A stretch of 64,000 nt of DNA. It comes from an uncultured Eubacteriales bacterium. GTDB taxonomy: Bacteria; Acidobacteriota; Aminicenantia; Aminicenantales; Aminicenantaceae. The notes under the pieces were generated by a model. The model searched no databases. It was not told the DNA's origin and saw nothing but the letters and a program-made list of their open reading frames with translations. Made by a program: the position numbers and the translations under genes. Positions 3,115-55,455 of the stretch are shown piece by piece. Numbering within the stretch: position 1 is the stretch's first letter; each line of letters starts with the position of its first letter. The stretch lies in contig CAYSCW010000002.1 in NCBI GenBank assembly GCA_964429795.1, positions 23,431 through 87,430 on the forward strand, written 5' to 3'.

Positions 3115-3172
3115 GATGCTGGAGGGGAACCGGCGCTATGACTGATTATATCTCTCATTTAGCTATCACCTG
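3115..3172. repeat. Partial copy (R0) of the mosaic intergenic repeat family: module E (GGAGGGGAACCGGCG) plus inverted, truncated module A
   Basis: 3120-3137 tggaggggaaccggcgcta matches 55407-55424. 3151-3170 tctctcatttagctatcacc matches the reverse complement of the module A consensus (ccctcatcattagctatcacggaaat) with a deletion. Confidence 0.45.
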
Positions 3173-3241
3173 AAAGGAGGCACTTCTCCTCTTTAATCAA
3201 TCCTTGAATTTTGGGGGATTGTATTGTATTTTAGATATGCT

Positions 3242-3520
3242 ATGAGATTGAACAGGAATCAGATCGAACACATGGCTTTCCTCATCGTCCGTAACCTGAT
3301 CAAAACCGAGAAAATAATCGCAGACAACAAGAACAAGCTTGTCGATGATGTGACCAATCTCATAACTGAGGAATTTCAGAAGGAGGACAAGTTAGATCAG
3401 GAAGTCAGAGAAATCCTCAGCAAGCATATGGAAAAAATCCGTAAGGAGAACATCGAATACCAGACCATGTTCCGGATGATCAAATCCAAACTGGCAAAAG
3501 AAAGGGATGTCGTGCTGTGA
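3242..3520 (+). CDS. DUF507-family protein, N-terminal half (split or frameshifted relative to typical ~185-aa DUF507 proteins)
   Basis: MRLNRNQIEHMAFLIVRNLIKTEKII... The track ORF starts at TTG 3224 and the first ATG is at 3242. It ends VL* with the stop overlapping a GTG at 3517. Confidence 0.55.
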   Translation: MRLNRNQIEHMAFLIVRNLIKTEKIIADNKNKLVDDVTNLITEEFQKEDKLDQEVREILSKHMEKIRKENIEYQTMFRMIKSKLAKERDVVL

Positions 3521-3807
3521 GTATTCGTCTGAGTCGAGAAAAAATCAATTACCTTTCCCGTCAAATCCTCGATGCCCTTTTTAACGATGATCAAGTCGAA
3601 TTCCTGGATGAGTCCAATGAAATCAGGCTCTCCATCGTGAAGAGCATTGAGGATGAGATGAAGCTTTATGGACTTCTGGATAAAAAAGCCATAGACAAAA
3701 TCAACGCCCAGAAAAAGTCCATCAAAGAGGGAAGCCGAGAGTGGGAAATTCTCTACCGAAAATATTACAATGACGAAATCTCCAAACTCGGTAAGTTTAT
3801 CGAATAA
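3517..3807 (+). CDS. DUF507-family protein, C-terminal half (GTG start, 4-nt overlap with upstream half)
   Basis: MSIRLSREKINYLSRQILDALFNDDQVEFLDESNEIRLSIVKSIEDEM... There is no ATG until residue 48. The two ORFs together are about 189 aa, the usual DUF507 length. Confidence 0.55.
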   Translation: MSIRLSREKINYLSRQILDALFNDDQVEFLDESNEIRLSIVKSIEDEMKLYGLLDKKAIDKINAQKKSIKEGSREWEILYRKYYNDEISKLGKFIE

Positions 3808-3820
3808 AATTCATCTCTCC

Positions 3821-3851
3821 TCTGAAGACAAACCCTGGATCGAAATCCAGG
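3821..3851 (-). terminator. Candidate intrinsic terminator for rmlD (hairpin CCTGGAT-cgaa-ATCCAGG then U-rich GUUUGUCUUC on the minus strand)
   Basis: 7-bp perfect stem at 3834-3840/3845-3851. Read on the minus strand it is followed by gtttgtcttc. It lies 120 nt downstream of the rmlD stop, in a convergent intergenic region. Confidence 0.3.
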
Positions 3852-3976
3852 AAAGAGTCCGTTATTCCGAGACAGATTAGAAAAGATCAAAGCTTGAATG
3901 GAAAAGAGTGGTTCTGGAATTCAACCAGAGCACAATCCGTAGCTGAAAAAGTCAAAAGGAAGCTTTTTCCTCTACC

Positions 3977-4837
3977 CTACTTAATGTATCCCTTCGCAAT
4001 GAGATAATTCTTAAGGGCAACTTTCCAGTGAGAAAAACTGCTCAAACCTATCTCTTTTGCTCTTTTATTCTCCAAGACAGAATAAGAGGGTCTCAAGGCC
4101 TTGGCTCCATAGGTTTTTGTATTCACAGGAAAAATCTTTGTCTTTTTCCCCATCAGGGCAAAGATGGTCTGGGCAAATTCAAACCAAGTGCACTGGCCTT
4201 CATTGGTCAAATGGTACAGACCAAAACGCTCTGATCGGATAAGCTCTCCGATACGCGGGGCAAGTTCTGCCGTGGATGTGGGTGTGACCCACTGGTCATT
4301 GACTACTCTTAATGGTTTTCCTTCTTTTTCTAAGGCTATCATCACATCTACAAAGTTTGTGCCTTTTCCCCAGCAGCCGGCTATTCCGTAGAGTCCACAA
4401 GTGCGGATAAGATAGAATTTTTCTAAGATGTTGCAGACGAAATATTCTCCGGCCAGCTTGGAGCAGGCATAGACGCTCAAAGGATTGGGCGGGTCCCCTT
4501 CGATGTAAGGACTTTTTTTCATCCCATCAAAGACATAATCTGTACTGAAATGGACAAGGGTGATATCAAAATCCCGACAGATCAGTGCCAATTCCCTCAC
4601 AGCTATAGAATTTACCAAGAATGATTCCTGGGGATTGTCCTCGCATTCGTCAACACGGTGATAGGCAGAGGTGTTGATCACCAATTCAGGTTGGATTTTG
4701 GAGAGCGTGTCTTTTGCTTTCTCTGGCTTGGTGACATCGAATTCAGGATAATAGAGAGGCAGCAGCTGGTCATCCCTAAGGAATTTCATCAGGTCTGAGC
4801 CCAGCTGGCCATCTGCTCCGATGACGGCGATCTTCAT
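3977..4837 (-). CDS. rmlD: dTDP-4-dehydrorhamnose reductase
   Basis: MKIAVIGADGQLGSDL (Rossmann fold), ...SAYHRVDECEDNPQESFLVNSIAVRELALICRD...LVHFSTDYVFDG..., an RmlD-family signature. 286 aa. Confidence 0.9.
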   Translation of the reverse strand: MKIAVIGADGQLGSDLMKFLRDDQLLPLYYPEFDVTKPEKAKDTLSKIQPELVINTSAYHRVDECEDNPQESFLVNSIAVRELALICRDFDITLVHFSTDYVFDGMKKSPYIEGDPPNPLSVYACSKLAGEYFVCNILEKFYLIRTCGLYGIAGCWGKGTNFVDVMIALEKEGKPLRVVNDQWVTPTSTAELAPRIGELIRSERFGLYHLTNEGQCTWFEFAQTIFALMGKKTKIFPVNTKTYGAKALRPSYSVLENKRAKEIGLSSFSHWKVALKNYLIAKGYIK

Positions 4838-4903
4838 TTTTCCAGGATGATCCTTCTCTCAGGAATAAGGAATGAATATGATCGTGATCTGAAAGTAGTA
4901 TTA

Positions 4904-4936
4904 AGGCCAGGGATTTTTCCCTGGCCTTATTTTTTG
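4904..4936. terminator. Strong hairpin with T-tract (AGGCCAGGG-attttt-CCCTGGCCT + TATTTTTTG) between two minus-strand genes
   Basis: 9-bp perfect GC-rich stem at 4904-4912/4919-4927. The canonical U-tract is on the plus-strand reading. On the minus strand, downstream of the OMP gene stop at 4961, the hairpin is preceded by an A-tract and followed by UUAAUACUAC. It is likely bidirectional or an insulator between the OMP gene and rmlD. Confidence 0.5.
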
Positions 4937-4960
4937 TCCATAAAAGACGATGTCTGCTTC

Positions 4961-6415
4961 TTAGAAGAGAAATCTGAATCCAAGCATCAGTTTGTGGTGC
5001 TTGGAGAATTTCCGCCCTTCTCCAACAGGAGCTCTGACCTCGAAGAAAAGAGAGCCCGTGCTGGTACGGGTACTGAGGACATCCAAACCAAAGTTACCGA
5101 TGAGATCAGCATCTGAATTTCTATTTTCTTTGACTTTGGTGGTGAATCCTGCTCCGGCTCCGAAAAAGGCAGGTCCAGAGTGAACATTCAACAGAATATT
5201 GGCCATAAAAATGGACTTCCAAGGATCTCCTTTCAATGCAGCAGCACCACCGCCAGAGATGACGAAGGACAGCGTATCAGGGATAATTTTATAGAGCAGG
5301 CCTATCCGCCCCGCCAGATAAGGGCCATACGAGCCTCTTGAAAAGAAAGGTCCTCCCTCAGCCAGAACAAACAATCTCTTCTGGGTCACTTCAAGATCCA
5401 CTCGGCAGGGTTGAGAAACTGCCCCAAAATCATCGGTGACAATCAATGTGATGGTGTAGAGACCTGGAACATCAAAGATCTTCTCCCAGGTAAAAGGAGT
5501 TTCTGAATCGGAGTATCTGTCGACGACATTTCCTTCTTGGTCACTAATTTCGAAATCAGCTTTGACCACTTGTCCATCAGGATCTGTGGATTCGGAGGCA
5601 TCTATGGTGATGGGATATCTTACATAATTCTCACAAGGAAGACAGGAAGTCCAGAGTTTGCATGTAGGAGGGACGTTGATGTATGTTTTTGCCTCGCATG
5701 GATTCGTTGATGGCTTATCCTCAAAATTGATTGCTTTTCCTTTAAATGTGTATTCGCCTGGTTTATCAAATTTGGTCTGCCATTTTGCCGAATCAGGGGT
5801 GAGAGTTTGAGTGGCCATTTTTGTTCCGTCCGGTCCGAAGACCTCGACTTCCATGGATTTTGCGTGTTGGGTGCCACTCATATCCACGGAAATGGGATCG
5901 TTGATGTTGGCCTTGGCAGGCTCAACTTTGATATCACAGATGGCCTCTGGAACGATTTCCTCAATTTTGCGAAGGGCAATATTGCCACAAGGCTTGGGCA
6001 TGATGAATTCATAGTGCTTGAAATCTTTCACGACTGTAAAAGAGAAGACAGGTAAAGGCTCTTTGCCTGCCCATTCGATATCTTCGACCACTTTGACTTT
6101 TCCCCGGGAACGAAAGAGCATCCACATCAATTTATCCCCTATGAGCAGTTCTTTATCCTCGAAAGATGCTGCTTTTATCTGGTCAAGAAAGGGAAGGAAA
6201 AGATCACCATAACCAACCATATCAAAACCATACTTGATATCCCCTGTGTAGCGATCGATAAGTATTTTCATCACTTCGGCAGTGGGAACTTCTCCTTTGA
6301 TTCGAACAAAAGTATAACGTCCGATTCTTCTCAGTTTCTTCGTCTCAGCGTAAGAATTCAAAGAGAGAAGAACGAGAAGCCCGATGACGAGGAAGACTAC
6401 CTTTTTGCTTTTCAT
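4961..6415 (-). CDS. Secreted outer-membrane protein with internal PKD-like domain and C-terminal beta-barrel (ends ...LMLGFRFLF)
   Basis: N-terminal signal peptide MKSKKVVFLVIGLLVLLSLNSYA. The PKD-like segment is ITIDASESTDPDGQVVKADFEISD...PGLYTITLIVTDDFGAVS. The C-terminal ~140 aa is Gly/aromatic-rich with alternating hydrophobic residues and a terminal Phe, as in OMP barrels. Confidence 0.75.
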   Translation of the reverse strand: MKSKKVVFLVIGLLVLLSLNSYAETKKLRRIGRYTFVRIKGEVPTAEVMKILIDRYTGDIKYGFDMVGYGDLFLPFLDQIKAASFEDKELLIGDKLMWMLFRSRGKVKVVEDIEWAGKEPLPVFSFTVVKDFKHYEFIMPKPCGNIALRKIEEIVPEAICDIKVEPAKANINDPISVDMSGTQHAKSMEVEVFGPDGTKMATQTLTPDSAKWQTKFDKPGEYTFKGKAINFEDKPSTNPCEAKTYINVPPTCKLWTSCLPCENYVRYPITIDASESTDPDGQVVKADFEISDQEGNVVDRYSDSETPFTWEKIFDVPGLYTITLIVTDDFGAVSQPCRVDLEVTQKRLFVLAEGGPFFSRGSYGPYLAGRIGLLYKIIPDTLSFVISGGGAAALKGDPWKSIFMANILLNVHSGPAFFGAGAGFTTKVKENRNSDADLIGNFGLDVLSTRTSTGSLFFEVRAPVGEGRKFSKHHKLMLGFRFLF

Positions 6416-6537
6416 AAAAGCCTCCTTTTCGCTATGATAATGTAATCACTAGGTTTATTCTTAACATAGATTAGAAATAATAATATATTTTGTCAAGGAA
6501 AAAATCAAGATCATTGTTGGGGAAAAAGCGATTCTCT

Positions 6538-6562
6538 CTTCCCTGATCACGGAAATGGAAAT
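6538..6562. repeat. Possible degenerate fragment of repeat module A (inverted) in the ACT/OMP divergent promoter region
   Basis: tccctgatcacggaaatgg matches tccctcgtcattagctatcacggaaat (52690-52716) with an internal deletion. It is short and could be chance. Confidence 0.25.
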
Positions 6563-6638
6563 GCTATCCCACCTTCTTTTTTTCTTTGTGTTTGAATCCC
6601 GTGTTTTGGTATAATTCTGGTTTAATAAGGAGGAAAAA

Positions 6639-7034
6639 GTGCATAACGTATGGGAAGATATCGAACTTCACGTGACTACACCAAATGAGCCAGGTATCAT
6701 GGGGCGAGTCTTGGGAACCTTGGCTAACGCTGGGGTAAATCTGAAAGCTCTCTGCATTTATTCTGAGGAGAATAAGGGGGTGTTTTTGCTTGTTACCTCT
6801 GACAATAAGAAAGCGGAGAAATCTCTAAAGGCCTTGAAGTATAAAGTAAAATCCAGAAAAGTGGTTGCGGTCAAAATCGATGACAGAATTGGGGCTGGGG
6901 CAGAAATTGGTGCCCTTCTTGGAAATGCAGCTATAGACATCGAGTACTGTTACGGAACCTCAGCCGAAACAGGAAAGGCGATTCTTGTTCTCAACACCAA
7001 CAAAAACAAGAAGGCAATTGAAACCCTCCGCTGA
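6639..7034 (+). CDS. ACT-domain protein (tandem ACT-like halves)
   Basis: GTG start at 6639, 4 nt after AAGGAGG. EPGIMGRVLGTLANAGVNLKAL...LVTSD and IGAGAEIGALLGNAAIDIEYCYGTS are characteristic ACT regulatory-domain patterns. Confidence 0.75.
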   Translation: MHNVWEDIELHVTTPNEPGIMGRVLGTLANAGVNLKALCIYSEENKGVFLLVTSDNKKAEKSLKALKYKVKSRKVVAVKIDDRIGAGAEIGALLGNAAIDIEYCYGTSAETGKAILVLNTNKNKKAIETLR

Positions 7035-7117
7035 ACCCATAATTGTAGTTCAGAGCTCAATCCGGTCTATCGGGTCAGCCTCTAAAATGGATAGCATAAT
7101 TTTTTTCTTCTTCTGAG

Positions 7118-8326
7118 ATGTCGGCAACATTGAACCCTCCGTTCGTAGAAGGGCTTGTGCCCCAGAGCCTGGAGAAGGAAAAACGGCATGTTCTACTTAG
7201 AACCATACGAAATTGGAGGGAAAATCTGGCCAATGATGATCCAGGACAACCTTCTGTTATCCTTTATTCGTTGGGAAACTTGAGTGATAAAGTCACCCTT
7301 ATAGCCATCTCCCTTTGTGCATCTTTGGGTATTTGGATTCCTCAGATTTCAATACCCTCCCCTAAAAAGCACGCTCTGGCCGATTCTATCAGTCTGATTT
7401 TTGGAGCGAAAAACTTTTTATCTCCAGACCAGATAAAGGCTCAACTCATTGCCCTGAAGGGAGCAATGTTTTCAGTGCCGGAGCCCCTCTTTTCCTCAAA
7501 AAAAGCATGGGAATTTTCTCCTTTAAAGTCAACATCAAATCAATTGTTCAATTTAGAGGAATGGATTAGGTATGTCGTGACGCTTGTATACTTGAGTGGA
7601 GCAAAAAGTGTTGTGTTTGATATCCGAGTGAATGGGAATTTTATTGTTCAAAATCAAAGAGAAGGGCGGGATTTTGCCCGCCGCATAAGGAATGGCTGTA
7701 AACAGTGTGGCATTCACTCTTCTTACATCCTGGGCAACACCAACCATTTTATAGGACAAGCCGCAGGAGAATATCTGGAAATCAAGGAAGCCCTGGAGGT
7801 GCTCAGGGGAAGAGGTCCTCTGGATTTAACAAAAGTGGCCATGGAGGTCGCTTCTGAAATGGTGCGCCTGGCCTATCCTCTCTCTCAGAGAACGGAGATT
7901 AAAAAGTCTTTAAAAAACAAGATTGATGAAGGAAAAGCCCTGGAAATATTCAAAGAAATGATCATCTTTCAGGGGGGAAATCCACTTTATATGGATGATA
8001 TCGCTCTGTTTCCTAAAGTAAAAAAGAGTCTACCCATTTTATCTGAGAAAGAAGGCTTCCTCCATAATCTGGATGAGAACAAACTTATATACCTCCGGTC
8101 TGAATTGGATGTTAGGCCTGGGAATCTGGGAACCGGATTTACCATTTTAAAGAAAAGAGGAGACCGGATAAAACAGGGAGATCTCTTGGCCGAAATTTTC
8201 CATGATGGGATCAGGAATGTTTCCGCTCTGAATAGCCATTTTAAGGATCTTTTTGTGATCGATACAACACCGCCACCCTTTCAGCCTCTGATCATCGAAA
8301 AAATCAGAGAAGAAGAACTTTCTTGA
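7118..8326 (+). CDS. Thymidine/pyrimidine-nucleoside phosphorylase-like protein, N-terminally shortened and with the conserved phosphate-binding motifs degenerate (probable non-catalytic homolog)
   Basis: YSLGNLSDKVTLIAISLCASLGIWIPQIS aligns to the TP motif HSTGGVGDxTTLVLAPLVAAxGVPVAKMS with the Gly and His replaced. HALADSISLIFGAKNF aligns to HTGGTIDKLESIEGF. The C-terminal half (VVFDIRVNGNF..., ALEVLRGRGPLDL, ALEIFKEMIIFQGGNP, PGNLGTGFTILKKRGDRIKQGDLLAEI) is clearly TP-like. Confidence 0.65.
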   Translation: MSATLNPPFVEGLVPQSLEKEKRHVLLRTIRNWRENLANDDPGQPSVILYSLGNLSDKVTLIAISLCASLGIWIPQISIPSPKKHALADSISLIFGAKNFLSPDQIKAQLIALKGAMFSVPEPLFSSKKAWEFSPLKSTSNQLFNLEEWIRYVVTLVYLSGAKSVVFDIRVNGNFIVQNQREGRDFARRIRNGCKQCGIHSSYILGNTNHFIGQAAGEYLEIKEALEVLRGRGPLDLTKVAMEVASEMVRLAYPLSQRTEIKKSLKNKIDEGKALEIFKEMIIFQGGNPLYMDDIALFPKVKKSLPILSEKEGFLHNLDENKLIYLRSELDVRPGNLGTGFTILKKRGDRIKQGDLLAEIFHDGIRNVSALNSHFKDLFVIDTTPPPFQPLIIEKIREEELS

Positions 8327-8382
8327 TTTTTTTCAGAAAAAATTTGCATAATTTCCTATAAAAAATAAAATAAAGTCAACCT

Positions 8383-9438
8383 ATGTCTAACAAAAAAAGG
8401 GTTGCAGTGGTCACTTCAGATGTCCCTTTCGTTAAAGGGGGACATATCACCATCGCTCAAAGCACCGTCAGGGCTCTCAGAGCTTGGGGCTATGAGGCCG
8501 ATTTGATCCTCACTCCTCAAAACAGGTTTGGTCATCAGCTCAGGGCTTATATGGCCACACGGTTGACCGATGTGGGTGAGGATGGTCTTGGTCGTAAGAT
8601 TCACCAAGTCATTTCTTTTCGTTATCCCAGTTATGCTGTCAAGCATTCCTGTCATGTCTGCTGGCTTAACCATCGGATGCGGGAATATTATGATCTTTGG
8701 GAGAGTTTTTCCTCTCAACTGGGCTTTCGAGCAAAGCTCAAGGAAGGCTTGAGAAGAAGAATCATTCATCTTCTGGATACACAGCTCCTGAAACACAATG
8801 TTACCAAGCTTTTCGCCCAATCGAAAACAATTCAAGAGAGGCTGAAACTTTGGGGAAGTATTCCGTCTGAATTACTCTACCCCCCTCCCCCTCAAAGAGA
8901 TTATCGCACCGAATCCTACCAAGACTTCATTCTCTCTGTTTCTCGACTCCAAAGGTTGAAGCGATTGGACCTTCTCCTGGATGCCTTAGCGCTCATGAAA
9001 AATAGAGATTTTAAGGCGGTTATCATCGGAGAAGGGCCAGAAGAGAAGAATTTAGGTTTAAAAATAAAAGATAAGCAGCTTGAAAACAGGGTATTGCTCC
9101 TGGGGAAAGCAGATGAGAAAATTCTTATTGAATACTATTCTCGTTGTTTAGCCGTGTTTTTTGCTCCGCTCAGGGAAGACTACGGCTTGGTGACCGCGGA
9201 AGCATTTGCTTCCAGAAAGTGCGTGGTGACCGCCTTGGATAGCGGAGGGCCAGCAGAACTGGTCATAGACGGTGAAAGAGGATATGTCTGCCCAGCTCGT
9301 CCTGAACGGATTGCTGAAAAATTGGATGAGCTGGCTGAAAATAGGGCTCTGGCAGAAAACATGGGTGAGAAGGCCTATACATTTATCTCCCACTTGACCT
9401 GGGAAAAAGCAGTGGAGAAACTTATCGTATGTGAGTAA
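8383..9438 (+). CDS. Glycosyltransferase family 4 (GT-B, Glycos_transf_1 type)
   Basis: C-terminal GT4 signature: FFAPLREDYGLVTAEAFASRKCVVTALDSGGPAELVIDGERGYVC with the EX7E-like acidic pair. The N-terminal GT-B half starts RVAVVTSD...GG. Confidence 0.85.
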   Translation: MSNKKRVAVVTSDVPFVKGGHITIAQSTVRALRAWGYEADLILTPQNRFGHQLRAYMATRLTDVGEDGLGRKIHQVISFRYPSYAVKHSCHVCWLNHRMREYYDLWESFSSQLGFRAKLKEGLRRRIIHLLDTQLLKHNVTKLFAQSKTIQERLKLWGSIPSELLYPPPPQRDYRTESYQDFILSVSRLQRLKRLDLLLDALALMKNRDFKAVIIGEGPEEKNLGLKIKDKQLENRVLLLGKADEKILIEYYSRCLAVFFAPLREDYGLVTAEAFASRKCVVTALDSGGPAELVIDGERGYVCPARPERIAEKLDELAENRALAENMGEKAYTFISHLTWEKAVEKLIVCE

Positions 9439-9509
9439 TTCACTGGATGCTTGTGGAAGCTGAGCTTTGAAAGAGATCGTTTCTAAATCTAAAATAAGGT
9501 AAAGGAGAA

Positions 9510-11414: not shown

Positions 11415-11475
11415 ATCCATCCGCTAGCTTTCTCGGATTTGGCTTGAGCAAGTATCTCCATTTCCGCGATAAACA

Positions 11476-13128: not shown

Positions 13129-13224
13129 AAGTAAACTGGTAATCTTGGATATCTAAGAAGATAGCTTACTCTGTAAGTAGTCTCCGAAGATTTCACATTT
13201 GAAAGGACAGGGATTGAGATATTC

Positions 13225-13503
13225 CTATTCAGGAAGTGGAGTCACTCTGAAGATGACTCCTTTGGGATCAGGGCAGCAGAGGGTTTCTGTCTCAGCAATC
13301 CAGTCATCGTGGGGAAGCTCATCTTCTCTCTGCTTCGCGGTTAAAAAAGGAAAAAGGCTGTTCAATGCATAGAGGCAGACTTTCTTTCCGTCAGGTATTT
13401 CGATGGTTCCTTCTCCCCTGATATAAAAGGTGTCGCCGACCCTGTGTTTGGCTCCACAGCGCTTTTTGATCCCCATCACTTCTACCTTTAATTCTCTCAT
13501 TTT
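13225..13503 (-). CDS. TIGR04076-like small Cys-rich protein
   Basis: MRELKVEVMGIKKRCGAKHRVGDTFYIRGEGTIEIPDGKKVCLYALNSLFPFL...DDW...CCPDPKGVIFRV matches the C..KH.VGD.F / C..AL / CCPDP / V.F pattern recalled for TIGR04076. The start was moved to the ATG at 13503, preceded by AAAGGAG. The track ORF starts further upstream. Confidence 0.55.
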   Translation of the reverse strand, partial: KMRELKVEVMGIKKRCGAKHRVGDTFYIRGEGTIEIPDGKKVCLYALNSLFPFLTAKQREDELPHDDWIAETETLCCPDPKGVIFRVTPLPE

Positions 13504-13604
13504 TTCTCCTTTCCCTACACAAAAAATATATAGGTCATAGAAGAAAAAATCAAGGAAGCAGAAAAGCATTTTCTTTTCCTAAATTGATAAAGTCCATAAA
13601 CACG

Positions 13605-13634
13605 TTGACAAAGCTCGAAAGATTATCATAAAAT
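13605..13634 (+). promoter_or_regulatory. Sigma70-like promoter upstream of exbD (TTGACA - 18 nt - TAAAAT)
   Basis: TTGACA at 13605-13610 and TAAAAT at 13629-13634. RBS AAAGGAGGA at 13657-13665. ATG at 13670. Confidence 0.4.
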
Positions 13635-13669
13635 TAATTTCCGAGTAATGGAGAGAAAAGGAGGATCAA

Positions 13670-14065
13670 ATGCCGACAAAGGCTGAACCCAATGTTGTTC
13701 CTCTGTGCGATGTCCTGTTGGTTTTGCTCATCATTTTTATGGTGATCACACCCATGATTCAGAAAGGAATCGATGTCAAACTTCCTGAAACCACAACGGA
13801 CACAAGTGCTACCCCTTCAGGGCTAATTGTCTTGACACTAAAAAAAGATATGAGTGTACTCATCAACACAGAAGAAATTGAATTAAGCATGCTTCAAGAT
13901 CGTCTCAAAAACATCTATTCCACCCGCCAAGATAAAACCATATTCATCAGAGCCGATGCCAAGCTCCCCTACAGCCGGGTGATTGAATTGATAGACATTG
14001 CCAAGGGTGCGGGAGTTGAAATACTGGGAATCATCCCCGAGTATTTCACTGAAGAGGAAATGTAA
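13670..14065 (+). CDS. ExbD/TolR-family biopolymer transport protein (no ExbB/TolQ or TonB partner in the window)
   Basis: 131 aa. Short cytoplasmic N-terminus, TM helix PLCDVLLVLLIIFMVITPMI, then a periplasmic domain IFIRADAKLPYSRVIELIDIAKGAG typical of ExbD. Confidence 0.85.
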   Translation: MPTKAEPNVVPLCDVLLVLLIIFMVITPMIQKGIDVKLPETTTDTSATPSGLIVLTLKKDMSVLINTEEIELSMLQDRLKNIYSTRQDKTIFIRADAKLPYSRVIELIDIAKGAGVEILGIIPEYFTEEEM

Positions 14066-14107
14066 AACCTCAACCAATCCTCTTCCTCCTTTCCGGAGTA
14101 ACCACGA

Positions 14108-14587: not shown

Positions 14588-14700
14588 TCCCCTACTCAAG
14601 GTCCAATTTTAGAATCCCTGACTTTCTGTTTGAAGCTTTGTTTCTATCAACCTATCGCTCCTTTCGGTATATCAACACTGTGAATTCTGTCCTGATTGAC

Positions 14701-15852: not shown

Positions 15853-15928
15853 TCTTTCCTCCTTCTTGGTTTATTCAGGTTTTCGCTTCTATTGAACGCA
15901 AGTTTTATACTGAAATCTTATTTCAATG

Positions 15929-21985: not shown

Positions 21986-21992
21986 CAGTGCA

Positions 21993-26414: not shown

Positions 26415-26440
26415 GAAATTAACTTGGCATGTTAGCACCT

Positions 26441-26605
26441 CCATTTCCGTGAGAGCTAATGATGAGGGATATAATCTGTCACAGCGCCTGGTGCCTCTCC
26501 TCCCTCGCCAAAGACCCTCTTACCCGCCACCATGGGCTTCGGAAAGACAGTAACCGTCGCCTCTCTACCTTGCCGGATGAAATATTTTCACTCATCACGT
26601 AAATG
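26441..26605. repeat. Mosaic intergenic repeat copy R1 (module A forward, module C, module B inverted) between the pqqD-like gene and def
   Basis: 26441-26470 ccatttccgtgagagctaatgatgagggat is module A. 26504-26542 ctcgccaaagaccctcttacccgccaccatgggcttcgg is module C (compare 52620-52660). 26571-26603 ccggatgaaatattttcactcatcacg is the reverse complement of module B (compare 52564-52590 and 47411-47440). Confidence 0.55.
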
Positions 26606-26805
26606 AAGATGCTTCCGCTTGGAATCAGGATTTGGATCAACTAACGAGGTGTCAGGCTTCCTTAAGAACGGAAACCTAAAGCAAGAATATCGCCTTGGCA
26701 TGACATAGATAATGAAGTCTGATCCTGATGTTGTCCAAGTCTCAAGACATAACAGAAGTTGAACAAAGAGTGATTTTTTTTTAAAATAAAGGTTAGTAGA
26801 GAAAA

Positions 26806-37791: not shown

Positions 37792-37794
37792 AAA

Positions 37795-40518: not shown

Positions 40519-40528
40519 AGATAAGCCT

Positions 40529-42232: not shown

Positions 42233-42310
42233 TTTTCCTCTCCTTTTCTATAAGATATAAATCTGTTTTTTTCCAGTCTTTCAATGTTTTTTGCTTTTTA
42301 GGTTCTTCTC

Positions 42311-43549: not shown

Positions 43550-43684
43550 TTTTTTCTCTTTCCAGTCAAAATTTTAGACTATGATATCTTTTCGTTTTAT
43601 CTACTGTCAATCAACAAGGAAGATAATCTTCCTTTTTCTCTTTTTTAACGTCTCGAATTATAATAAATTAACGGTTCAAGTGGG

Positions 43685-44872: not shown

Positions 44873-44969
44873 AGAATGTTAGCTTTTCAGAAAGAAGTTA
44901 TGGAGAAGAATGATATTCAGCTTTTCCCCTTTTGTAGGCCTGCTTACTCAAGCAGTAAAAATCTCTGAT

Positions 44970-47063: not shown

Positions 47064-47183
47064 CTTAGAGCCTCCCTATGGAATGGAAAACTTGGTTTTA
47101 AGATGCAGGAAATCTTCTTTGCCAAAGAGGCAAGCAACGAATATGATACAATAAAATCTACTCTCTTCTCAAGGTATTTTTTG

Positions 47184-47490
47184 CAGTATGTAAGCATCCC
47201 CATTTCCGTGATGCAGTAACAGTCAGGTAAGCTGATTCGTCAGCCCGCGGATTTTCCCCAGCGAGGAAAATCCGCTTATTCCTCGGCTCGCTCTCCTCTT
47301 CGAGGAACCATGCCCGCTCGCCTCCGGATGTCTTCCAACTCAGCTTACCTGACTGCTGTTAAAACTGTCACGGAAATAAGGGTGCTTCCTTGCAGTATCT
47401 CCATTTCCGCGATGAGTGAAAACATTTCATACGGTTAGGTAGTGAGACGGCGGTTCCCATCCCTCTGAAGGCCATGGTGGGAGGGTCTTT
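47184..47490. repeat. Mosaic intergenic repeat copy R2 (composite: R2a has a long inverted repeat flanking module D and an internal hairpin; R2b has module A-like + module B + inverted module C), abutting the rluD stop
   Basis: Each sub-element begins ttgcagtat(g/c)...catttccg (47181 and 47393). R2a arms 47203-47234 and 47339-47376 are imperfect inverted repeats. Internal hairpin GCGGATTTT-11nt-AAAATCCGC at 47247-47275. Module D 47230-47268 matches 55368-55406. Module B 47411-47465 matches 52564-52620. Confidence 0.6.
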
Positions 47491-48409
47491 AACCTGTAAT
47501 GCGTTCGATTTTATTCAAAAAATTTTTCAGATCCTCAGGGAGAGGGGATGAGAACATGACTCTTTTTCCTGAATCAGGGTGATGGAAGGAGATTTGAGCC
47601 GCATGGAGAAAGAGCCGGGGGGATTTGATTTTTTCCTTTCTGCGGCCGTAACGGCTGTCCCCGGCCACAGGGTGTCCTGCTGCTGCAAGATGAACTCTTA
47701 TCTGGTGGGTTCTTCCGGTGATGGGTTTTATTCTGAGTAAGGTGAATTTCTCCAGCTCTTTTTCCACACTATATTGAGTCTTGGCAGCACGGGGTTTTTT
47801 CGTCTTTGTCGACATTCTTCCTCCGTGCTTAGGATGGCGACCTAATGACCAGGTCATTTCACCCGATTTTTGAGGCATTCTTCCCCAGACAAGGCCGATG
47901 TAGACCTTTTCCACAGCCCTTTCTTTAAACTGACGCTGAAGACTACTGTGGGCTTTAAGGCTTCTGGCCACCACCATAACACCTGAGGTCTCTTTATCCA
48001 AACGATGGACGATTCCTGACCTTTCCACAGGACCGATTCCTTCTATATCAGGAAAATGATGGAGCAAAGCATTGACCAATGTCCCGCTCTTCACTCCTGC
48101 TCCGGGATGGACAACCAGTCCTGAAGGCTTGTCCACTACCAGGATATGATTATCGCTGTGTATGACTTTCAGAGGTATATTTTCTGGCTGTACATTTGGG
48201 ATGCCGTGGATTGTGTACTCTATCTCCACCCTGTCCCCAGGTTTCAAATGATAACTTGGCTTTGAGCCTTTTCCACTGATTAAAACCTTCTCTTCTTCGA
48301 TGAGGCTTTGAACCTGAGAGCGGCTCAGTTCTTTTATCTTGTGAGAGAGGAATACATCCAGCCTTTTATTTTCATCTGGAGAAGTGATGAGGAATTCCTT
48401 CTTAGACAC
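47489..48409 (-). CDS. rluD: RluA-family 23S rRNA pseudouridine synthase (RluD-like, with N-terminal S4 domain)
   Basis: S4-like KRLDVFLSHKI...SRSQVQSLIEE. Catalytic HRLDKETSG. ...GRTHQIRVHLA... Confidence 0.88.
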   Translation of the reverse strand: MSKKEFLITSPDENKRLDVFLSHKIKELSRSQVQSLIEEEKVLISGKGSKPSYHLKPGDRVEIEYTIHGIPNVQPENIPLKVIHSDNHILVVDKPSGLVVHPGAGVKSGTLVNALLHHFPDIEGIGPVERSGIVHRLDKETSGVMVVARSLKAHSSLQRQFKERAVEKVYIGLVWGRMPQKSGEMTWSLGRHPKHGGRMSTKTKKPRAAKTQYSVEKELEKFTLLRIKPITGRTHQIRVHLAAAGHPVAGDSRYGRRKEKIKSPRLFLHAAQISFHHPDSGKRVMFSSPLPEDLKNFLNKIERITG

Positions 48410-49199
48410 TTTTCTTTTTTTTGAGGAAAAAATAAAGACTTAACCCTCCCACCAGCCCTAGGATGCAGAAGAGCTGAGGGAGGGAAAGGCTGAGATAAGG
48501 TGAGGGGTTTTGGATGAGGAAGGCTTTATCCGCATGGTCCCCTCTGTAGAATTCAACTAAGTAGCGGATGATGGAATAGTTGATGATGTAGAAGGCAAAG
48601 ACCTGACCATCGAATTTTTTCTTTTTCAAGATGACGAAGAGGATGGCAAAGTTTAAAAAATTCAGCACAGACTCATAAAGCTGGGTGGGATGGATAGGGA
48701 TTTTAAGCGGAATTCCTGTCAAGTTGTGGGCGTATTCACTGTGAAACTCCACTCCCCAAGCCAAATCGCAGGCCCGTCCATAACAGCATCCTGCCGTGAA
48801 ACATCCTATCCGGCCAAATCCATGCCCCAAGGCCAGGGCTGGACCGATGATATCAGCTGCTTTCCAGGTTGGAATACGGTGTTTTCGGAAATACCACAGG
48901 GCGAAGAGGAAACCGACGGTCAATCCACCTTGGAAGACGCCCCCGGACCGGGCGAGGGAAAAGAGTTCTGAAGGATAGCGAACATAATAGGAGATGTTCC
49001 CCACAAAGAGGATGAGCTTGGCTCCGATCAAGGAGATGATAATGGTGTAAAAAGCCATATCGATCATGCGGGAAGCAGGAAGTCCCTTTTTCCTGGCTTG
49101 GACATAGAGAAACCAGAAGCCCATGCCCACACCCAAAGCCATCATGAATCCATAGGTATGGATGGTCAGAGGACCAATTTTGAAGAGGATTGGCAACAT
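48402..49199 (-). CDS. lgt: Prolipoprotein diacylglyceryl transferase
   Basis: MLPILFKIGPLTIHTYGFMMALG...IGPALALGHGFGRIGCFTAGCCYG..., the Lgt signature. Start reset to the ATG at 49199. 8-nt overlap with the rluD start. Confidence 0.9.
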   Translation of the reverse strand: MLPILFKIGPLTIHTYGFMMALGVGMGFWFLYVQARKKGLPASRMIDMAFYTIIISLIGAKLILFVGNISYYVRYPSELFSLARSGGVFQGGLTVGFLFALWYFRKHRIPTWKAADIIGPALALGHGFGRIGCFTAGCCYGRACDLAWGVEFHSEYAHNLTGIPLKIPIHPTQLYESVLNFLNFAILFVILKKKKFDGQVFAFYIINYSIIRYLVEFYRGDHADKAFLIQNPSPYLSLSLPQLFCILGLVGGLSLYFFLKKKKSV

Positions 49200-49201
49200 C
49201 T

Positions 49202-49675
49202 TTATTTCCTCTTGAACAACAGAAGAAAAATCAGAATCACTGCTCCCACACTCACGCTGGCATCCGCCACATTGAAGGAGGGCCAGTGCCATTTCTTAAT
49301 GTAGAAATCTAAGAAATCTATCACATATCCCCGCAAGATTCTGTCCATCAAGTTGCCCAAAGCACCGGCCAGGATCAAGGAGAGAGATATTTGCAAAAAT
49401 CTCTCTTGAGCAGAAGTTTTGAAAAAATAATAGAGGACTAGGAAAAAGGCAACTATCGAGGCTCCCATCAGAATATAATGGACCAACGGGCCAGGAGATC
49501 GGGAGAGAAAGCCGAAGATGGCTCCCCGGTTGTGAATATGAGTCAGGTTCAAGAAGCCAGGGATAACACAGTGGTGACTGAACAAGGGAAAGGTGTGGGA
49601 GACCCAGATTTTACTCGCCTGGTCGGTGATTATAATCAGAACAATAAGGAGAAAATAGGGAAATTTGTTTTTCAT
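49202..49675 (-). CDS. lspA: Lipoprotein signal peptidase (signal peptidase II)
   Basis: ...DQASKIWV...NRGAIFGF...[17 protein letters not shown]... ATGA overlap with the ileS stop. Confidence 0.9.
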
Positions 49676-52449
49676 ATCTCAATCTGGCTGACCACCTCTT
49701 CACATCTCTTGCAGAAGAGAGGGAAGCGGGAGCTTTTTCCCACATATGGGGAGTAATTCCAACATCTCTGGCATTTTTCCCCTTCAGCCTTGGTAACCTT
49801 GACCTTGATCTCCTCATCTTCAGTGGGTGTAAGATGAACTGCGGAGACGATAAAAAGGGAGGCCAAGTCTTTTTCGTGCTTTTCGAGAAGGCTCTCCTTG
49901 GAGGCAGGGATATCCAGAGTCACAGATGCCTCCAATGAGTTTCCGATAAGCTTCTCTTCTCTTGTTCTTTCCAGTTCCTTTAAAACCTTTTCTCTGACAG
50001 CGATCAGGTCTGCCCACTCGCTGAAGAGCTCATCCTCCAGCCATTTCTCTTTAAAAGAGGGGAAAAGCTCCAGATGGATGGATTCCTCCTTCCCCTCATA
50101 GTGCGGCATGGCTTCCCACGCTTCTTCTGAGGTAAAAGGCAGGATGGGGGCCATAAGCACGAGGCTCCATTTCAAGAGATAAAAGAGAGCTGTTTGGGCA
50201 GATCTTCGCAGCAGAGAGCTTTTTTTCGAACAATAGAGCCTGTCTTTGAGAACATCCAGATAGAATGCACTCAGATCTACAGTGAAAAAATTGTACAGCG
50301 CATGAAAGACGATGTGGAATTCATAATCTTCATAAGCCTTAAGGATTCTTCTCCCCTGCCGGGAGCATTTCTCCAGAATCCATTTATCCAGGAGATTCAT
50401 ATCTTCGTGAGCAACCATTTCTTCGTCAGGAATAAAATCGTAGAGATTCCCCAGAATGAATCTCCATGTGTTTCTGATCTTGCGATAAGCTTCCACCAGT
50501 CTCTGCAGAATCTCATTTCCGAATCGAGCATCTTCTTTGTAGTTAAGCATGGCCACCCAAAGCCGGAGGATTTCGGCCCCGTTCTGTGAAATGATTTCTT
50601 CCGGCTCGATGAAATTTCCCAGTGATTTTGACATTCCTCTCCCCTGCTCATCAAGGACAAAGCCATGAGTGATCACCGATCTATAAGGAGAGGCGTGCTT
50701 GGCAGCCAGACCGACAAAGAGGGAGCTGTTGAACCACCCTCTGTATTGATCGTGACCTTCCACGTAGAGATCAGAAGGCCAGGGCAGGTCCTCTCGTTTT
50801 CCCAGAACATTGTGGCTGGCTCCCGATTCAAACCAGACATCCAGGATGTTGTTTTCCTTATTGAATTTAGCTGATCCGCACTGTGAGCATTTGGTACCGG
50901 GTGGAAGAAGCTCCTCCGCATTCTTGTTGTACCAGGCTGTGGAGCCTTCTCTGGAGAAGATATCGGCTATTCTCAGAGTGATATCGTCTCCGGCTAAAAT
51001 CTGGGTGCAGTCTTGGCAATAGAAGGCAGGAATGGGCACGCCCCATGAACGCTGTCGGGATATACACCAATCCGGTCTTGCCGTGACCATGTTCGAAATC
51101 CTCTCCTCTCCCCAGGCCGGAATCCAGCGCACTTTTTTAATCTCTTGGAGCGCTTTTTTGCGAAGATCATTCTTGTCCATTGAGATAAACCACTGGGCTG
51201 TAGCCCTGAAGATCACCGGGTTTTTGCATCGCCAACAATGAGGATAGGAATGGACGATTTGGCCTACTTTGAGAAGGCTTCCCTCTTTTTTCATGTCTTC
51301 GATGATGACTTTGTTGGAGTCGAACACGTTCATCCCGCCGTATCTTTCGACCTGAGGTATAAAATTGCCCTTGCTGTCCACAGGAGTGTAGATATCCAGC
51401 TTGTAGGCCAATCCAGTCATATAATCCTCATAACCATGGCCGGGAGCGGTATGGACACAGCCTGTTCCCTGTTCAAGAGTGACATAATCGGCCAAGACAA
51501 AGACAGATTCTCGATCGATGAAGGGATGGCGGGCTTTGAGACCTTCCATTTCTTTTCCGAGAAAAGTGGTTAAGATCTTTGTCTTCTTTAGGCCCAGTTC
51601 CTCTGCTACGACTGGAATCAGCCTTTTGGCGGCGATGTAAACTTCGCTGTCCTCCTGGAAAGCGGCGTATTCATAGTCGGGATGGAAGGCGATAGCCAGA
51701 TTGGCAGGGAGAGTCCAGGGCGTTGTGGTCCAGATCAGGACAAAGACATTTTTCCCTTTCAACGAAGAAAACTTTTGGGAGAGGTCGGAGATTAAAGAGA
51801 ATTTCACATAGATAGATGGAGAGGGTCGATCTTTGTATTCGATCTCAGCTTCAGCCAGTGCTGTACGACAGTGGGGACACCAGTGAACGGGCCTTTTTCC
51901 TTTATAAACATTTTCAGAAGCAAAAAAAGCGGCCAGATGCCGAAGCACCTCCCCCTCATATTGGGGATCCATGGTTAGGTAAGGATTTTCCCATTCACCA
52001 AAGACTCCCAGTCTTTTAAATTGACCGCGCTGAATGTCAACATACTTGAGGGCGTATTTTTTGCACTCTTCCCTGATTTCTATGATGGACAGATCCTTCT
52101 TTTTATCTCCCAAGAGTTGGTCCACTTTGATCTCGATGGGAAGACCATGACAATCCCATCCCGGAAGATAGGGAGAGCGGAAATTCTGCATGGTTTTTGT
52201 CTTGACGATGAAATCCTTCAAAATCTTGTTGAGGGCTGTCCCAAGATGAATATTGCCGTTGGCATATGGCGGTCCATCATGAAGGACAAAGATAGGAGAG
52301 TTCTCCCTTATTTTCTGGATCTTCTTATAGAGACGCATACTTTCCCATTTTTTGATGAGTTCTGGTTCCCTCTGGGGAAGCTTGGCTTTCATGGAAAAGG
52401 AGGTTTGGGGAAGGTTCAAACTCTCCTTGATCTTTTCACTGCTTGACAT
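49672..52449 (-). CDS. ileS: Isoleucyl-tRNA synthetase (type 1, with C-terminal zinc finger)
   Basis: [23 protein letters not shown] (HIGH), KMSKS as GMSKSLGN, C-terminal CQRCWNY...CKRC. Confidence 0.95.
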
Positions 52450-52560
52450 AGTCTTTCTCCGCTAATCACCTGTTTTTTCTTTTTTATTATAAAAGAAGTT
52501 ATTTTATTACGCCATAAGAAAAAGTCAATAAAAGGGATCTCAACGTAAGTATTTCAAAAA

Positions 52561-52735
52561 CCATGATGAGTGAAGATATTTCATCCAGTAAGGTAGTTAG
52601 GCAGCAGTTGCCCTCCATCCTCGCCAAAGACCTTCCCACCCTCCGCCATGGGCTTCGGATGAACCGCAACCGCCGCTGGGACTGATCATCTCCCTCGTCA
52701 TTAGCTATCACGGAAATTGAGATGATTCCCATTTC
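52561..52735. repeat. Mosaic intergenic repeat copy R3 (module B forward, module C, module A inverted) between the nadB 3' end and the ileS 5' region
   Basis: 52564-52620 atgatgagtgaagatatttcatccagtaaggtagttaggcagcagttgccctccatcc is module B. 52620-52660 is module C. 52688-52717 is the reverse complement of module A. Confidence 0.55.
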
Positions 52736-52856
52736 AAATTTGGCAATATGACTGAAATCCAGAGATTCGTAAGTATATTATATGGATAGGTGAACACAAT
52801 GGTAAACAACATGAAATTTCAATAATAAAAATATGTAGATGATTTCTATTAAGAAA

Positions 52857-54431
52857 TCAGTCTCTTCTGTAGTGAGCTCCGCGGCTGACAGGATTGTTTA
52901 TTGCAGCAGAGGTGATCAGTTGAGCAACCTGTATGCCGTGTTTGAGACCTACTACTTTGGCATCCATTTTGGCTTCTTTGTAGAATTTTTCGATCCTGTG
53001 TCTTAGATAATCCAGGTCGGCTTTAGCCCTTTCTAGTCGTTTCTTGGTGCGGATGATTCCAGAATAATTCCATAATGTGGAGCGAATGAAAACCCAGTCT
53101 TGATTGATCAATGCAGGATCGATATCTTCTTCCCGAACAGGATAATACCATTTATGGATATCAGTGGATTTATAAATATGTGTGGAATTAAAATGAGAAA
53201 CGATGTGCTGGGCTGCTCTTGTTCCCCAAATCAATCCTTCCAGGAGAGAGGTCGAGGCCAGACGGTTTGCCCCGTGCAGGCCAGTGCATGATACCTCACC
53301 CACGGCATAGAGGCCTTTAAGCGAGCTAAGTCCCTGTGTATTAACCAGAACCCCACCACAACAATAATGAGCTGCAGGAACCACAGGGATGGGATCCTTG
53401 TTGATATCGATCCCGTATTTCAAGCAGGTCTGGTAGATGTTGGGGAAACGTTTTTTGATATCGATCTTGGCATAAGATGCTAGATCCAGGTAGACATAGC
53501 TGGAGTCGGTGTTTGTCATTTCTTCGTAGATAGCCCTGGTAACCTCATCACGGGGGGCTAACTCTTTCTTCTCTGAATATTTCTCCATAAAGAGCCGACT
53601 ATCTTTTGACTTTAAGCGGGCCCCCTCTCCCCTCACCGTCTCCGAGATCAAGAAACCATCCGCATCTCGATGAAAGAGCGAAGTGGGATGAAACTGAATG
53701 TACTCCATGTTGACGATTCTGGCTCCGGCTCTGTAAGCCATCGCATACCCGTCCCCTATAGCACTCGGGGGATTGGATGTGTAGAGATAAAGTGCGCCAC
53801 AACCTCCGGTGGCCAAAATAGTGTAAGGGGCAAAGATGGTCTTTACCTTGCGGGTTTCGTTGTCTAAGATATATGCACCGATACACTGCGGTTCTTTGTA
53901 ATAAGCGGTAGGATTTTTGGAATGGTGAGGAACAGTGAGAAGATCGACAGCGGTATGGTTATTCAGGAGAGTGAGATTGGAAAATTTTTTCAATGCCATG
54001 ATGAATTTCTCTTCGATGGTACGCCCTGTTGTATCTTTAATATGAAGAATCCTTCTTCTGGAGTGACCAGCCTCCTGAGCATAATCGAGTGAATCGGGAG
54101 AACTGTGGGTAAAGGGGATGCACAACTCTTTGATCAGAATATCGTCCACCATCTTCTTACCTTCAATGGCCAGAAGTTCTACAGCCTCAGGATTGTTGAT
54201 CCCATCCCCTGTTTTGATGATGTCTTCTTTCAGAAGCTCTGGGCGGTCATCGTACCCAAGGGAGACAATTCCTCCCTGAGCATAATAAGTATTGGATTCC
54301 TCTAGAGTAGAATTCTTGGAGATGACGATGACACGTAGCCCACTCTTGGCTGCTTCCAGGGCTGCGCTCGAGCCAGCGATTCCGCAGCCTATGATTAAAA
54401 CATCGGTGGTTAGAGTCTCTTGATTATCCAT
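52857..54431 (-). CDS. nadB: L-aspartate oxidase
   Basis: DVLIIGCGIAGSSAALEAAKSG (FAD). ...RDEVTRAIYEE..., ...HYCCGGV... and GEVSCTGLHGANRLASTSLLEGLIWG match succinate DH/fumarate reductase flavoprotein-family motifs of the NadB type. 524 aa. Confidence 0.9.
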   Translation of the reverse strand: MDNQETLTTDVLIIGCGIAGSSAALEAAKSGLRVIVISKNSTLEESNTYYAQGGIVSLGYDDRPELLKEDIIKTGDGINNPEAVELLAIEGKKMVDDILIKELCIPFTHSSPDSLDYAQEAGHSRRRILHIKDTTGRTIEEKFIMALKKFSNLTLLNNHTAVDLLTVPHHSKNPTAYYKEPQCIGAYILDNETRKVKTIFAPYTILATGGCGALYLYTSNPPSAIGDGYAMAYRAGARIVNMEYIQFHPTSLFHRDADGFLISETVRGEGARLKSKDSRLFMEKYSEKKELAPRDEVTRAIYEEMTNTDSSYVYLDLASYAKIDIKKRFPNIYQTCLKYGIDINKDPIPVVPAAHYCCGGVLVNTQGLSSLKGLYAVGEVSCTGLHGANRLASTSLLEGLIWGTRAAQHIVSHFNSTHIYKSTDIHKWYYPVREEDIDPALINQDWVFIRSTLWNYSGIIRTKKRLERAKADLDYLRHRIEKFYKEAKMDAKVVGLKHGIQVAQLITSAAINNPVSRGAHYRRD

Positions 54432-54437
54432 AGGTTT

Positions 54438-55271
54438 TTAAGATAAAAATTCCATGCTGATGTCCATAGATCTGTAGGAGTGGGTCAAGCTGCCCACTGA
54501 TATATAATCCACGCCCAGAGCTGCGATCTCCTTGGCATAATCGAGATTTACCTTTCCTGAGGCCTCCACAGGAATTCTTCCTTTCAACCAAGTCACCGCC
54601 TCTCTCATTTCTTCCAAAGACATGTTGTCAAGCATGATCATATCTGCTCTGCTTTGTAGAGCCTCCTTTGCTTCTTCCAGGGTGGTTGTCTCCACTTCGA
54701 TTTTTACACCTTTGTCGACTTTTTCCCGAGCCTTCTTCACCGCATCCGTGATGCTTCCTACTATCTGGAGATGGTTATCTTTGATCAGAACCATCTCCGA
54801 GAGATTCAGTCGGTGATTCAGGCCCCCTCCCATTCTCACGGCATATTTTTCCAGGATTCTCAAGCCAGGGGTAGTCTTCCGTGTGTCAAGAATCTTTGTT
54901 TTTGTTCCTGAGATGGCCTGGACATATCTCCGTGTAGCGCTGGCTATGCCAGAGAGCCGCTGGAGAAAATTCAATGCTATCCGTTCTCCTTTAAGGAGAG
55001 AAACAGCGGGGCCACTGATTTGAGCCAGCGTCTCTTCTTCATGGAAGGTCTGGCCATCTTCTTTCATCTTGTCAAATGCAGTGGACGGATCGATGAGTTG
55101 AAATACTCTTTTGGCCACATCAATTCCAGCCAGAACTCCTTCTTCTTTAGCCAAGAAGACGGCTTTGGATTGAGAATGAGAGGGAATAATGCTTTCAGAT
55201 GTGATATCACCCTCAGGCATATCTTCCTCGAGGGCTCTCTTGATGATGCTGTCTATCTCTTCCTCTTTCAT
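54438..55271 (-). CDS. nadC: Nicotinate-nucleotide pyrophosphorylase (quinolinate phosphoribosyltransferase)
   Basis: EEDMPEGDITSESII...ILDTRKTTPGLRILEKYAVRMGGGLNHRLNLSEMVLIKDNH...IMLDNMS... Confidence 0.9.
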   Translation of the reverse strand: MKEEEIDSIIKRALEEDMPEGDITSESIIPSHSQSKAVFLAKEEGVLAGIDVAKRVFQLIDPSTAFDKMKEDGQTFHEEETLAQISGPAVSLLKGERIALNFLQRLSGIASATRRYVQAISGTKTKILDTRKTTPGLRILEKYAVRMGGGLNHRLNLSEMVLIKDNHLQIVGSITDAVKKAREKVDKGVKIEVETTTLEEAKEALQSRADMIMLDNMSLEEMREAVTWLKGRIPVEASGKVNLDYAKEIAALGVDYISVGSLTHSYRSMDISMEFLS

Positions 55272-55327
55272 TTGAGAAGATTATAATTTTTTCCTGTTTT
55301 TCAGTCAAATAAAGCTGGAAGAGCGAT

Positions 55328-55455
55328 AGCATCTCCATCTCCGTGATGATTGTAATGACAGTTGGGCAAGCTGAATCGTCAGCACGCGGATTTTCCCCAG
55401 CGAGGATGGAGGGGAACCGGCGTTGTCCCTCATCATTAGCTATCATGGAAATGCT
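55328..55455. repeat. Mosaic intergenic repeat copy R4 (module A-like forward, module D, module E, module A inverted) in the nadC / flippase-like divergent region
   Basis: 55331-55356 catctccatctccgtgatgattgtaatga and 55426-55453 gtccctcatcattagctatcatggaaat form terminal inverted repeats. Module D 55368-55406 matches 47230-47268. Module E tggaggggaaccggcgttg matches 3120-3137. Confidence 0.55.

Follow-up and report, generated by a model that had tools for sequence, protein, structure and literature searches.

The window, meaning the whole 64,000-nucleotide (nt) stretch of contig CAYSCW010000002.1 analyzed here, contains six copies and two solo ends of a short repeat family, which together make up ~920 nt, or 1.4% of its length. 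The repeats lie between genes, among them rluD and an EF-G paralog, nadB and ileS, and a pqqD-like gene and def, and the blocks they share were seen both by repeat detection and by sensitive self-BLAST of the window. We interpret the repeats as a new family of recently active transposable elements of the miniature inverted-repeat kind (MITEs) in an Aminicenantes bacterium, and place the probability of this interpretation at about 90%. The assignment rests on the combination of terminal inverted repeats (TIRs), a target duplication of fixed length, small size, lack of coding content, many copies, and presence or absence of copies between strains. An initial annotation, made from the letters alone, had pointed to five intergenic loci with shared blocks and had proposed an undescribed MITE-like or Correia-like family; all five loci were recovered where it had placed them, and the proposal is borne out by the TIRs, target-site duplications and empty sites described below.

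Terminal repeats, target-site duplications and empty sites

All copies have in common a ~23-nt TIR, G(T/G/A)AAGCATCTCCATTTCCGTGAT, and the outer ends of every copy, read inward from either side, are AGCATCTCCATTTCCGTGAT. The 18-nt core of this repeat occurs eight times in the window with at most three mismatches, compared with 0.05 occurrences expected from shuffles, and once the empty sites are taken into account the ends reach 5'-G(T/G/A)AAGCATC..., or ~23 nt. In 14 elements from the window and related loci (designated L001, L005 and so on) the terminal repeat is found at both ends. Full copies measure 127-203 nt (13 single two-ended elements), and in each the terminal repeats enclose a subterminal arm of one of three types (A, B or D) together with a core that varies. 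The inverted "module A" ends that the initial annotation had reported on several copies are real, with the amendment that all copies are bounded in this way and that its module A is composed of the terminal repeat and one of the three arm types.

The elements do not encode a conserved protein. No reading frame is shared between copies, no Pfam domains are found within them, and protein-database matches are limited to open reading frames (ORFs) of 49-114 amino acids (aa) without domains, so that the coding gene family named in the initial annotation as a refuting outcome was looked for and not found; the recurrent "ISxIANDEG" peptide is, as had been suggested, the translated repeat. Arm B was also considered as coding, through an "LPNW" motif like that of IS66 C-termini, and was rejected, as its frame is not kept between copies. 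All 24 copies examined are intergenic, lying between long ORFs, in agreement with the strictly intergenic placement claimed earlier.

Comparison with syntenic contigs, ordered by NadB identity to the window (L033 and L034, 97%; L035, 91%; L036, 88%; L049, 86%; L037, 84%; L048, 81%), revealed that intergenic lengths differ exactly at the repeat positions. One such position is that of R2a (47190-47389, + strand), a complete 200-nt D-type element of structure TIR-D-F-G-TIR that is missing from L034, where the spacer between rluD and the EF-G paralog contains the empty site GGAGATACTGCAAAATATATC. The same spacer in the window reads ATACTGCAA / GGAAGCACCC...(200 nt)...GGGGATGCTTAC / ATACTGCAA, and the two states differ by R2a itself and by a 9-bp duplication without mismatches, TTGCAGTAT, found at 47181-47189 and again at 47390-47398. 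Similarly, R4 (55325-55458, + strand), a complete 134-nt hybrid (TIR-D arm-E-rcA-TIR, where rc denotes the reverse complement) upstream of nadC with a 6-nt deletion in one end, is missing from L035 and L036, the L035 empty site being AGGGAATCTCTTCCAGCTTTATTTGAC. In the window the 134 nt are bordered by CTCCTCCAG and CTCTTCCAG, with flanking repeats TGGAAGAGC and TGGAGGAGA that match at 7 of 9 positions; R4 is present in L033 and L034 and identical in L001. The converse is seen upstream of an MFS gene, where L034 has a copy and the window (43550-43684) has none. The empty sites of R2a and R4, together with the target-site duplications, indicate that the units are inserted DNA. At the R3 site L033 carries a different, shorter form, and L035 is without a recognizable element.

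The duplications that had been suggested for inspection at the element ends are present, in a 9-bp register, across the family. Flank identity in this register is 57-61% across the 14 two-ended elements, which include one two-element composite, compared with 26% for mismatched-pair controls and a maximum of 36% in 200 permutations. Individual flanks match at 9/9 positions for R2a, 8/9 for L011a and L006a, and 7/9 for R4, L016 and R1 (ACTTGGCAT at 26422-26430 and GCTTGGAAT at 26617-26625), while R3 is flanked by GATCTCAAC and CATTTCAAA, a 6/9 match. Two copies found later gave 8/9 (L049) and 7/9 (L047).

These features suggest the following life cycle. A transposase encoded elsewhere would recognize both ends and make a staggered 9-bp cut at a new site, the repair of which would leave the 9-bp target-site duplication; the duplication is observed, and the cut is taken from the standard mechanism of DDE transposases. 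Copies would then persist solely between genes, and old copies would decay to truncated forms and solo ends.

Mosaic architecture and hairpin formation

Within the window, identity between shared blocks is 93% for arm A (26442-26469, 52691-52717 and 55426-55453), 86% for the D block (47212-47267 with 55351-55406) and 80% for the centre (26497-26560 with 52613-52676). Mapping of eight module consensus sequences on all copies (T, terminal repeat; lower case, reverse complement) gave the architectures TACbt for R1, TAECebt for L005 and L006, TBCat for R3, TBECat for L010, TBEcat for L016, TDFGt for R2a and L006b, TDeGt for L011, TEDeGt for L010b, TD(e)at for R4 and L024, and Tgceat for L027; L047, read by eye from the sequence, is T-A-E-C-e-d-t. 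The mosaic is therefore real, with arm types A, B and D joined to different cores. The module strings of the initial annotation agree with this map, in which R1 is A+C+rcB, R3 is B+C+rcA, R4 is D-arm+E+rcA, and R2 is a D-type element and then B+rcC.

When six full A/B copies are aligned, arms A and B are seen to pair together, making the whole unit one long imperfect palindrome. A 36-nt centre, set between inverted E stems of 13-15 nt (GGTTCCTATCCATCC and GGATGGAnAGGAACC), has the opposite orientation, as reverse complement, in R3 and L010 but not in the other four. Between nadB and ileS, a right end with the same derived changes is common to the window and a 97% relative, yet the arm next to it is B in the former and A in the latter; this difference fits an in-place inversion of the interior and is not proof of it. 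With inverted repeats nested inside one another (terminal repeat, then arms, then E stems), either the 36-nt loop or the entire interior could become inverted, and recombination between subfamilies at shared stems may have produced the mosaics.

Alternative explanations and a candidate parent

The folding of the element could in principle be the conserved property, with mobility secondary, as expected of a structured non-coding RNA or a cis-regulatory RNA hairpin family. Single strands do fold as long hairpins, with z-scores of -7.4 to -11.4 (-8.8 / -11.4 for R2a), and 92.6% of cells are paired in the alignment of the six A/B copies. Among 57 pairs, 12 have changed on both sides, compared with 4.3 in shuffles (0/500), while slid controls collapse, indicating that the palindrome is maintained beyond simple decay. 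In addition, a simple scan scored as terminator-like a hairpin in the D/F module at 47247-47275 (+ strand; an 11-bp stem, GCGGATTTTCC...GGAAAATCCGC, then TTATTCC), on the strand opposite to the flanking genes at the R2a site. However, no Rfam match was obtained for the whole window at the gathering threshold or for two copies at E<=1, and a tRNA/tmRNA scan found none. A consistent orientation relative to transcription was rejected, since the A-to-B direction is that of the flanking genes at R1 and R3 and opposite at L005 and L016, and the L006 and L010 copies lie between divergent or convergent genes. Among minority states, G-T and A-C mismatches are balanced (16 and 13), so that neither strand is favored as RNA, and one-sided changes in the terminal stems outnumber matched ones 64 to 12. 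Together with the target-site duplications and empty sites, which mark the units as inserted DNA, these results make an RNA family very improbable. We read the compensatory changes as matched ends inherited from source copies combined with DNA-level homogenization within the palindrome, and a secondary RNA effect of co-transcribed copies is possible.

The modular make-up, use of modules in both orientations, strictly intergenic positions, hairpin formation and lack of a nearby transposase also recall REP/BIME-like or BOX-like mosaics, in which case recombination or an enzyme of the RAYT type (HUH) would have spread them, in place of a cut-and-paste or copy-paste DDE transposase. To our knowledge, REP/REPIN, BIME and BOX families have neither TIRs that bound the unit nor target duplications, whereas here ~23-nt TIRs and 9-bp duplications are backed by empty sites, and no HUH/RAYT (Y1_Tnp) domain was found in the window ORFs scanned. 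We give this origin almost no chance. The BOX/BIME resemblance noted in the initial annotation holds for the few modules, their varied combinations in either orientation and their intergenic setting; because of the inverted ends and 9-bp duplications it is a loose, descriptive likeness only. The common truncated copies and solo ends (R0, R2b, R5, R6 and several in related loci) might instead be taken as relics of full-length insertion sequences deleted internally in place, which never transposed as miniatures. Against this, individual short architectures are found at more than one unrelated locus, each with its own duplications (R2a and L006b; TAECebt at L005 and L006; TACbt at R1), and the R2a insertion is polymorphic between strains with 97% identical NadB, with no trace of a longer precursor, leaving in-place relics a highly unlikely account.

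The MITE interpretation implies a parent transposase, and the searches for one were negative. No Pfam transposase domain was detected in the ~40 window ORFs scanned (1-43.5 kb and 60.7-64 kb), nor in the precomputed Pfam annotation of syntenic genes covering 43-60 kb or in other syntenic loci, in line with the earlier statement that the window lacks a transposase. A protein search with the translated repeat, aimed at an overlapping transposase terminus, recovered no transposase. Two scans of viral contigs with terminal-repeat patterns gave only chance matches, which fell within coding sequence of unrelated phages of high GC or high AT content, and plasmid BLAST with the end plus arm A likewise gave chance matches only.

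The ends themselves offer a lead. IS66-family inverted repeats (IRs) are 20-30 bp long and start with GTAAGCG (PMC11946415), as in the example GTAAGCGTCCGGCGAACTCACCTT (PMC12888890). The commonest end in the present family, GTAAGCATCTCC..., resembles these; the consensus is G(T/G/A)AAGCATC... over 23 nt, with GTAAGCAT as the commonest form and position 2 variable. Because the ends most resemble those of the IS66 family, an IS66-like element is the leading candidate parent. We hold this tentatively, at somewhat less than even odds, as a lead from end sequences and not a finding. Likeness extends to the IR (~23 nt here, most often starting GTAAGCATC; published IS66 IRs such as GTAAGCGTCCGGCG...) and to a duplication of similar size, whereas the remainder of the IR is unrelated and tnpA, tnpB and tnpC were not found in the sequences examined.

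Several observations weigh against the MITE interpretation or the parentage suggested for it. Neither the window nor ~450 kb of related loci (checked for end pairs 0.7-3 kb apart), viral contigs or plasmids yielded an autonomous element with these ends. The second base of the end may be T, G, A or C, making the match to GTAAGC imperfect, and the duplication register is 9 bp, with a perfect 9-mer at R2a, compared with the 8-bp direct repeats of the published IS66 cases consulted; an 8-bp duplication extended by one chance base is still conceivable. Some elements have poorly matching flanks, with only 2 of 9 positions in L014, as would be expected of old copies, an expectation that is not proof. 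Finally, the compensatory double changes in the stems are not predicted by plain decay of a selfish element. One way to accommodate them, and the loop that flips between copies, is that the family is more than decaying selfish DNA and a ~55-bp nested hairpin is actively maintained, with new copies homing to the tips of older ones and to sites that lie 2-25 nt upstream of a -35 box. We consider this unlikely; if true, it would imply structure-dependent targeting, or a function at host level in which the elements act as promoter-proximal or RNA hairpin modules, and, if the IS66 lead is also right, a MITE lineage mobilized by an IS66-type transposase in a candidate phylum.

As MITEs, the repeats fall within a well-known kind of element. 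Bacterial examples include Correia/NEMIS in Neisseria, RUP in Streptococcus pneumoniae, ERIC in enterobacteria and Nezha in cyanobacteria, which like the present family are 100-200 nt long, have TIRs, a fixed-length target duplication and no ORF, occur as dispersed intergenic copies, fold over their whole length into a long imperfect hairpin, and show subfamilies, internal-deletion variants and strain presence/absence. Correia/NEMIS has a 26-bp TIR and a TA target duplication, and RUP also duplicates TA, whereas the duplication here is 9 bp and variable in sequence. Unlike the known families, to which no sequence similarity was seen in Rfam, plasmid BLAST or literature searches, this one combines an unusually rich mosaic (three arm types and a flip-flopping centre) with an uncultivated Aminicenantes host. 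It belongs to none of the Correia, RUP, ERIC, BOX or REP/BIME families, and because a search of a paper library on MITEs in Aminicenantes gave nothing, it appears to be undescribed. What novelty remains would lie in the maintained hairpin, the flip-flopping loop, and the apparent insertion at older tips and just upstream of -35 boxes.

The understanding of MITE-type elements is unchanged by these findings. They do document a mobile element, recently active, in Aminicenantes, a sediment lineage that is widespread and uncultivated. Since copies differ between strains whose NadB proteins are 97% identical, they are usable as strain markers. Gene callers turn copies into small "hypothetical proteins", which a family model would allow to be masked, and the flip-flopping centre and arm mosaics provide a clean natural case of nested inverted repeats reshuffling a small element.

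Dispersal, remaining copies and insertion sites

Copies outside the window, which the initial annotation had proposed to count, demonstrate that the family is dispersed. Scanning of metagenomes with an arm-A pattern gave 27 loci, which after removal of duplicates and chance matches leave ~10 distinct loci with ~15 more copies, on contigs of the same project and of others. A genome collection that does not contain the window's own genome, also scanned with an arm-A pattern, gave three matches, one a true relative (L005, a GTDB metagenome-assembled genome) and two by chance, and a profile of the translated repeat identified 16 tiny, domain-less "proteins" as further copies. Overall, the elements occur at no fewer than 12 loci besides the window. 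R2a is 94% identical over 195 nt to L006b (L006, 3835-4029) at an unrelated locus. Multiple contigs terminate inside a copy, indicating that the repeats break assemblies.

Named homologues of NadB all come from Candidatus Aminicenantes. L005 (CAYVAT010000027.1), which carries a full copy, is labeled "uncultured Eubacteriales bacterium"; named homologues of its NuoG-like neighbor are all from Aminicenantes, at 60-64% identity, and on this evidence the label looks wrong. In the complete Aminicenantes genome L048 (CP070825.1), the 81% relative, no copy was found in the 21.5 kb examined. In L048 (11809-13721) the ileS ORF that follows nadB is only 193 aa, after which synteny breaks and the genes have no relation to those of the window (a pair of ORFs lacking Pfam domains, purine-synthesis genes, mutL). 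Two unannotated ORFs of this locus were considered and rejected, being mutually unrelated and not flanked by the repeat.

Besides R2a and R4, the window has two complete elements on the + strand. R1 (26431-26616; 186 nt, TIR-A-C-rcB-TIR) lies between the pqqD-like gene and def, identified by Pfam PqqD and Pep_deformylase matches, and R3 (52545-52729; 185 nt, degenerate TIR-B-C-rcA-TIR by module map and alignment), between nadB and ileS, has its central loop flipped relative to R1. Two copies are truncated. R0 (3115-3186, - strand), past an SNF-family symporter gene (1388-3004), was correctly noticed in the initial annotation as a copy at 3115-3172 and extends to an outer end at ~3186, comprising an E stem, arm A in reverse complement and a degenerate terminal repeat; it matches R1, R3 and R4 by blastn and the arm-A profile by nhmmer (E 3.6e-12). 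R2b (47392-47490, + strand) is TIR-B-part of rcC by the module map.

The solo ends are R6 and R5. R6 (6546-6568, - strand; ATCACGGAAATGGAAATGCTATC on the + strand) had been listed as a possible fragment at 6538-6562 and is a genuine terminal repeat with shifted coordinates, one mismatch to the 18-nt core and an nhmmer E of 8.5e-5; the intergenic region that holds it is flanked by divergent genes, one at 4961-6415(-) and the other, with an ACT domain, at 6639-7034(+). R5 (11448-11470, + strand), found by repeat detection and nhmmer upstream of cstA (Pfam CstA match), is additional to the loci first listed. A second proposed fragment, at 13634-13652, did not hold up, having more than five mismatches and no nhmmer match at E<=1, and profile searches of the window with the three end types found no copies beyond the six and the two solo ends.

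Several copies impinge on their neighbors. R5 ends 5 nt ahead of the annotated cstA ATG (11476), which leaves no space for a ribosome-binding site, so that either the gene starts at another position or its 5' leader comes from the repeat. At its inner end, which is truncated (47487-47493, GGGTCTTTAACC, where the module has GGGTCTTTGGCG), R2b contains the rluD stop codon, TAA (on the complement, 47489-47491), and the last codon or two of rluD may thus be element-derived. The rluD/EF-G spacer has three states: R2b plus R2a in the window (47064-47490), R2b only in L034 (8840-9085, with R2b at 8853-8949), and a different arm-A copy further from rluD in L033 (16700-16841), the NadB proteins of L033 and L034 being identical to each other and 97% identical to that of the window.

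Many insertions lie 2-25 nt upstream of -35-like hexamers (TTGACT, TTGAGA, TTGACA), in the window at 55459-55500 (nadC side), 52440-52545 (ileS side) and 47140-47190 (EF-G paralog side), and at L036 11760-11790, L049 8397-8500 and L010 4056-4090. Twice, separate insertions fall at nearly the same spot: upstream of nadC, R4 in the window and, in L049, a mini element of ~75 nt; upstream of ileS, those of the window/L033 and of L036. Such positions could reflect a target preference, or survival where harm is least. D-type elements also tend to insert at the tips of other family members. The 9-bp target of R2a (47181-47398 region) overlaps the final 7 nt of the R2b terminal repeat, the right duplication of a D-type copy in L011 (480-681) adjoins the first base of an A-type copy, and L016 (2124-2500) holds a D+B..A composite between 7/9 flanking repeats.

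Apart from the repeats, the DUF362 gene of the window (~61349-62350) has a ~408-nt internal deletion with its junction near 61726, corresponding to residues 71-206 of the 331-aa protein of the 97% relative L033; the DNA around the deletion is 96-98% identical.

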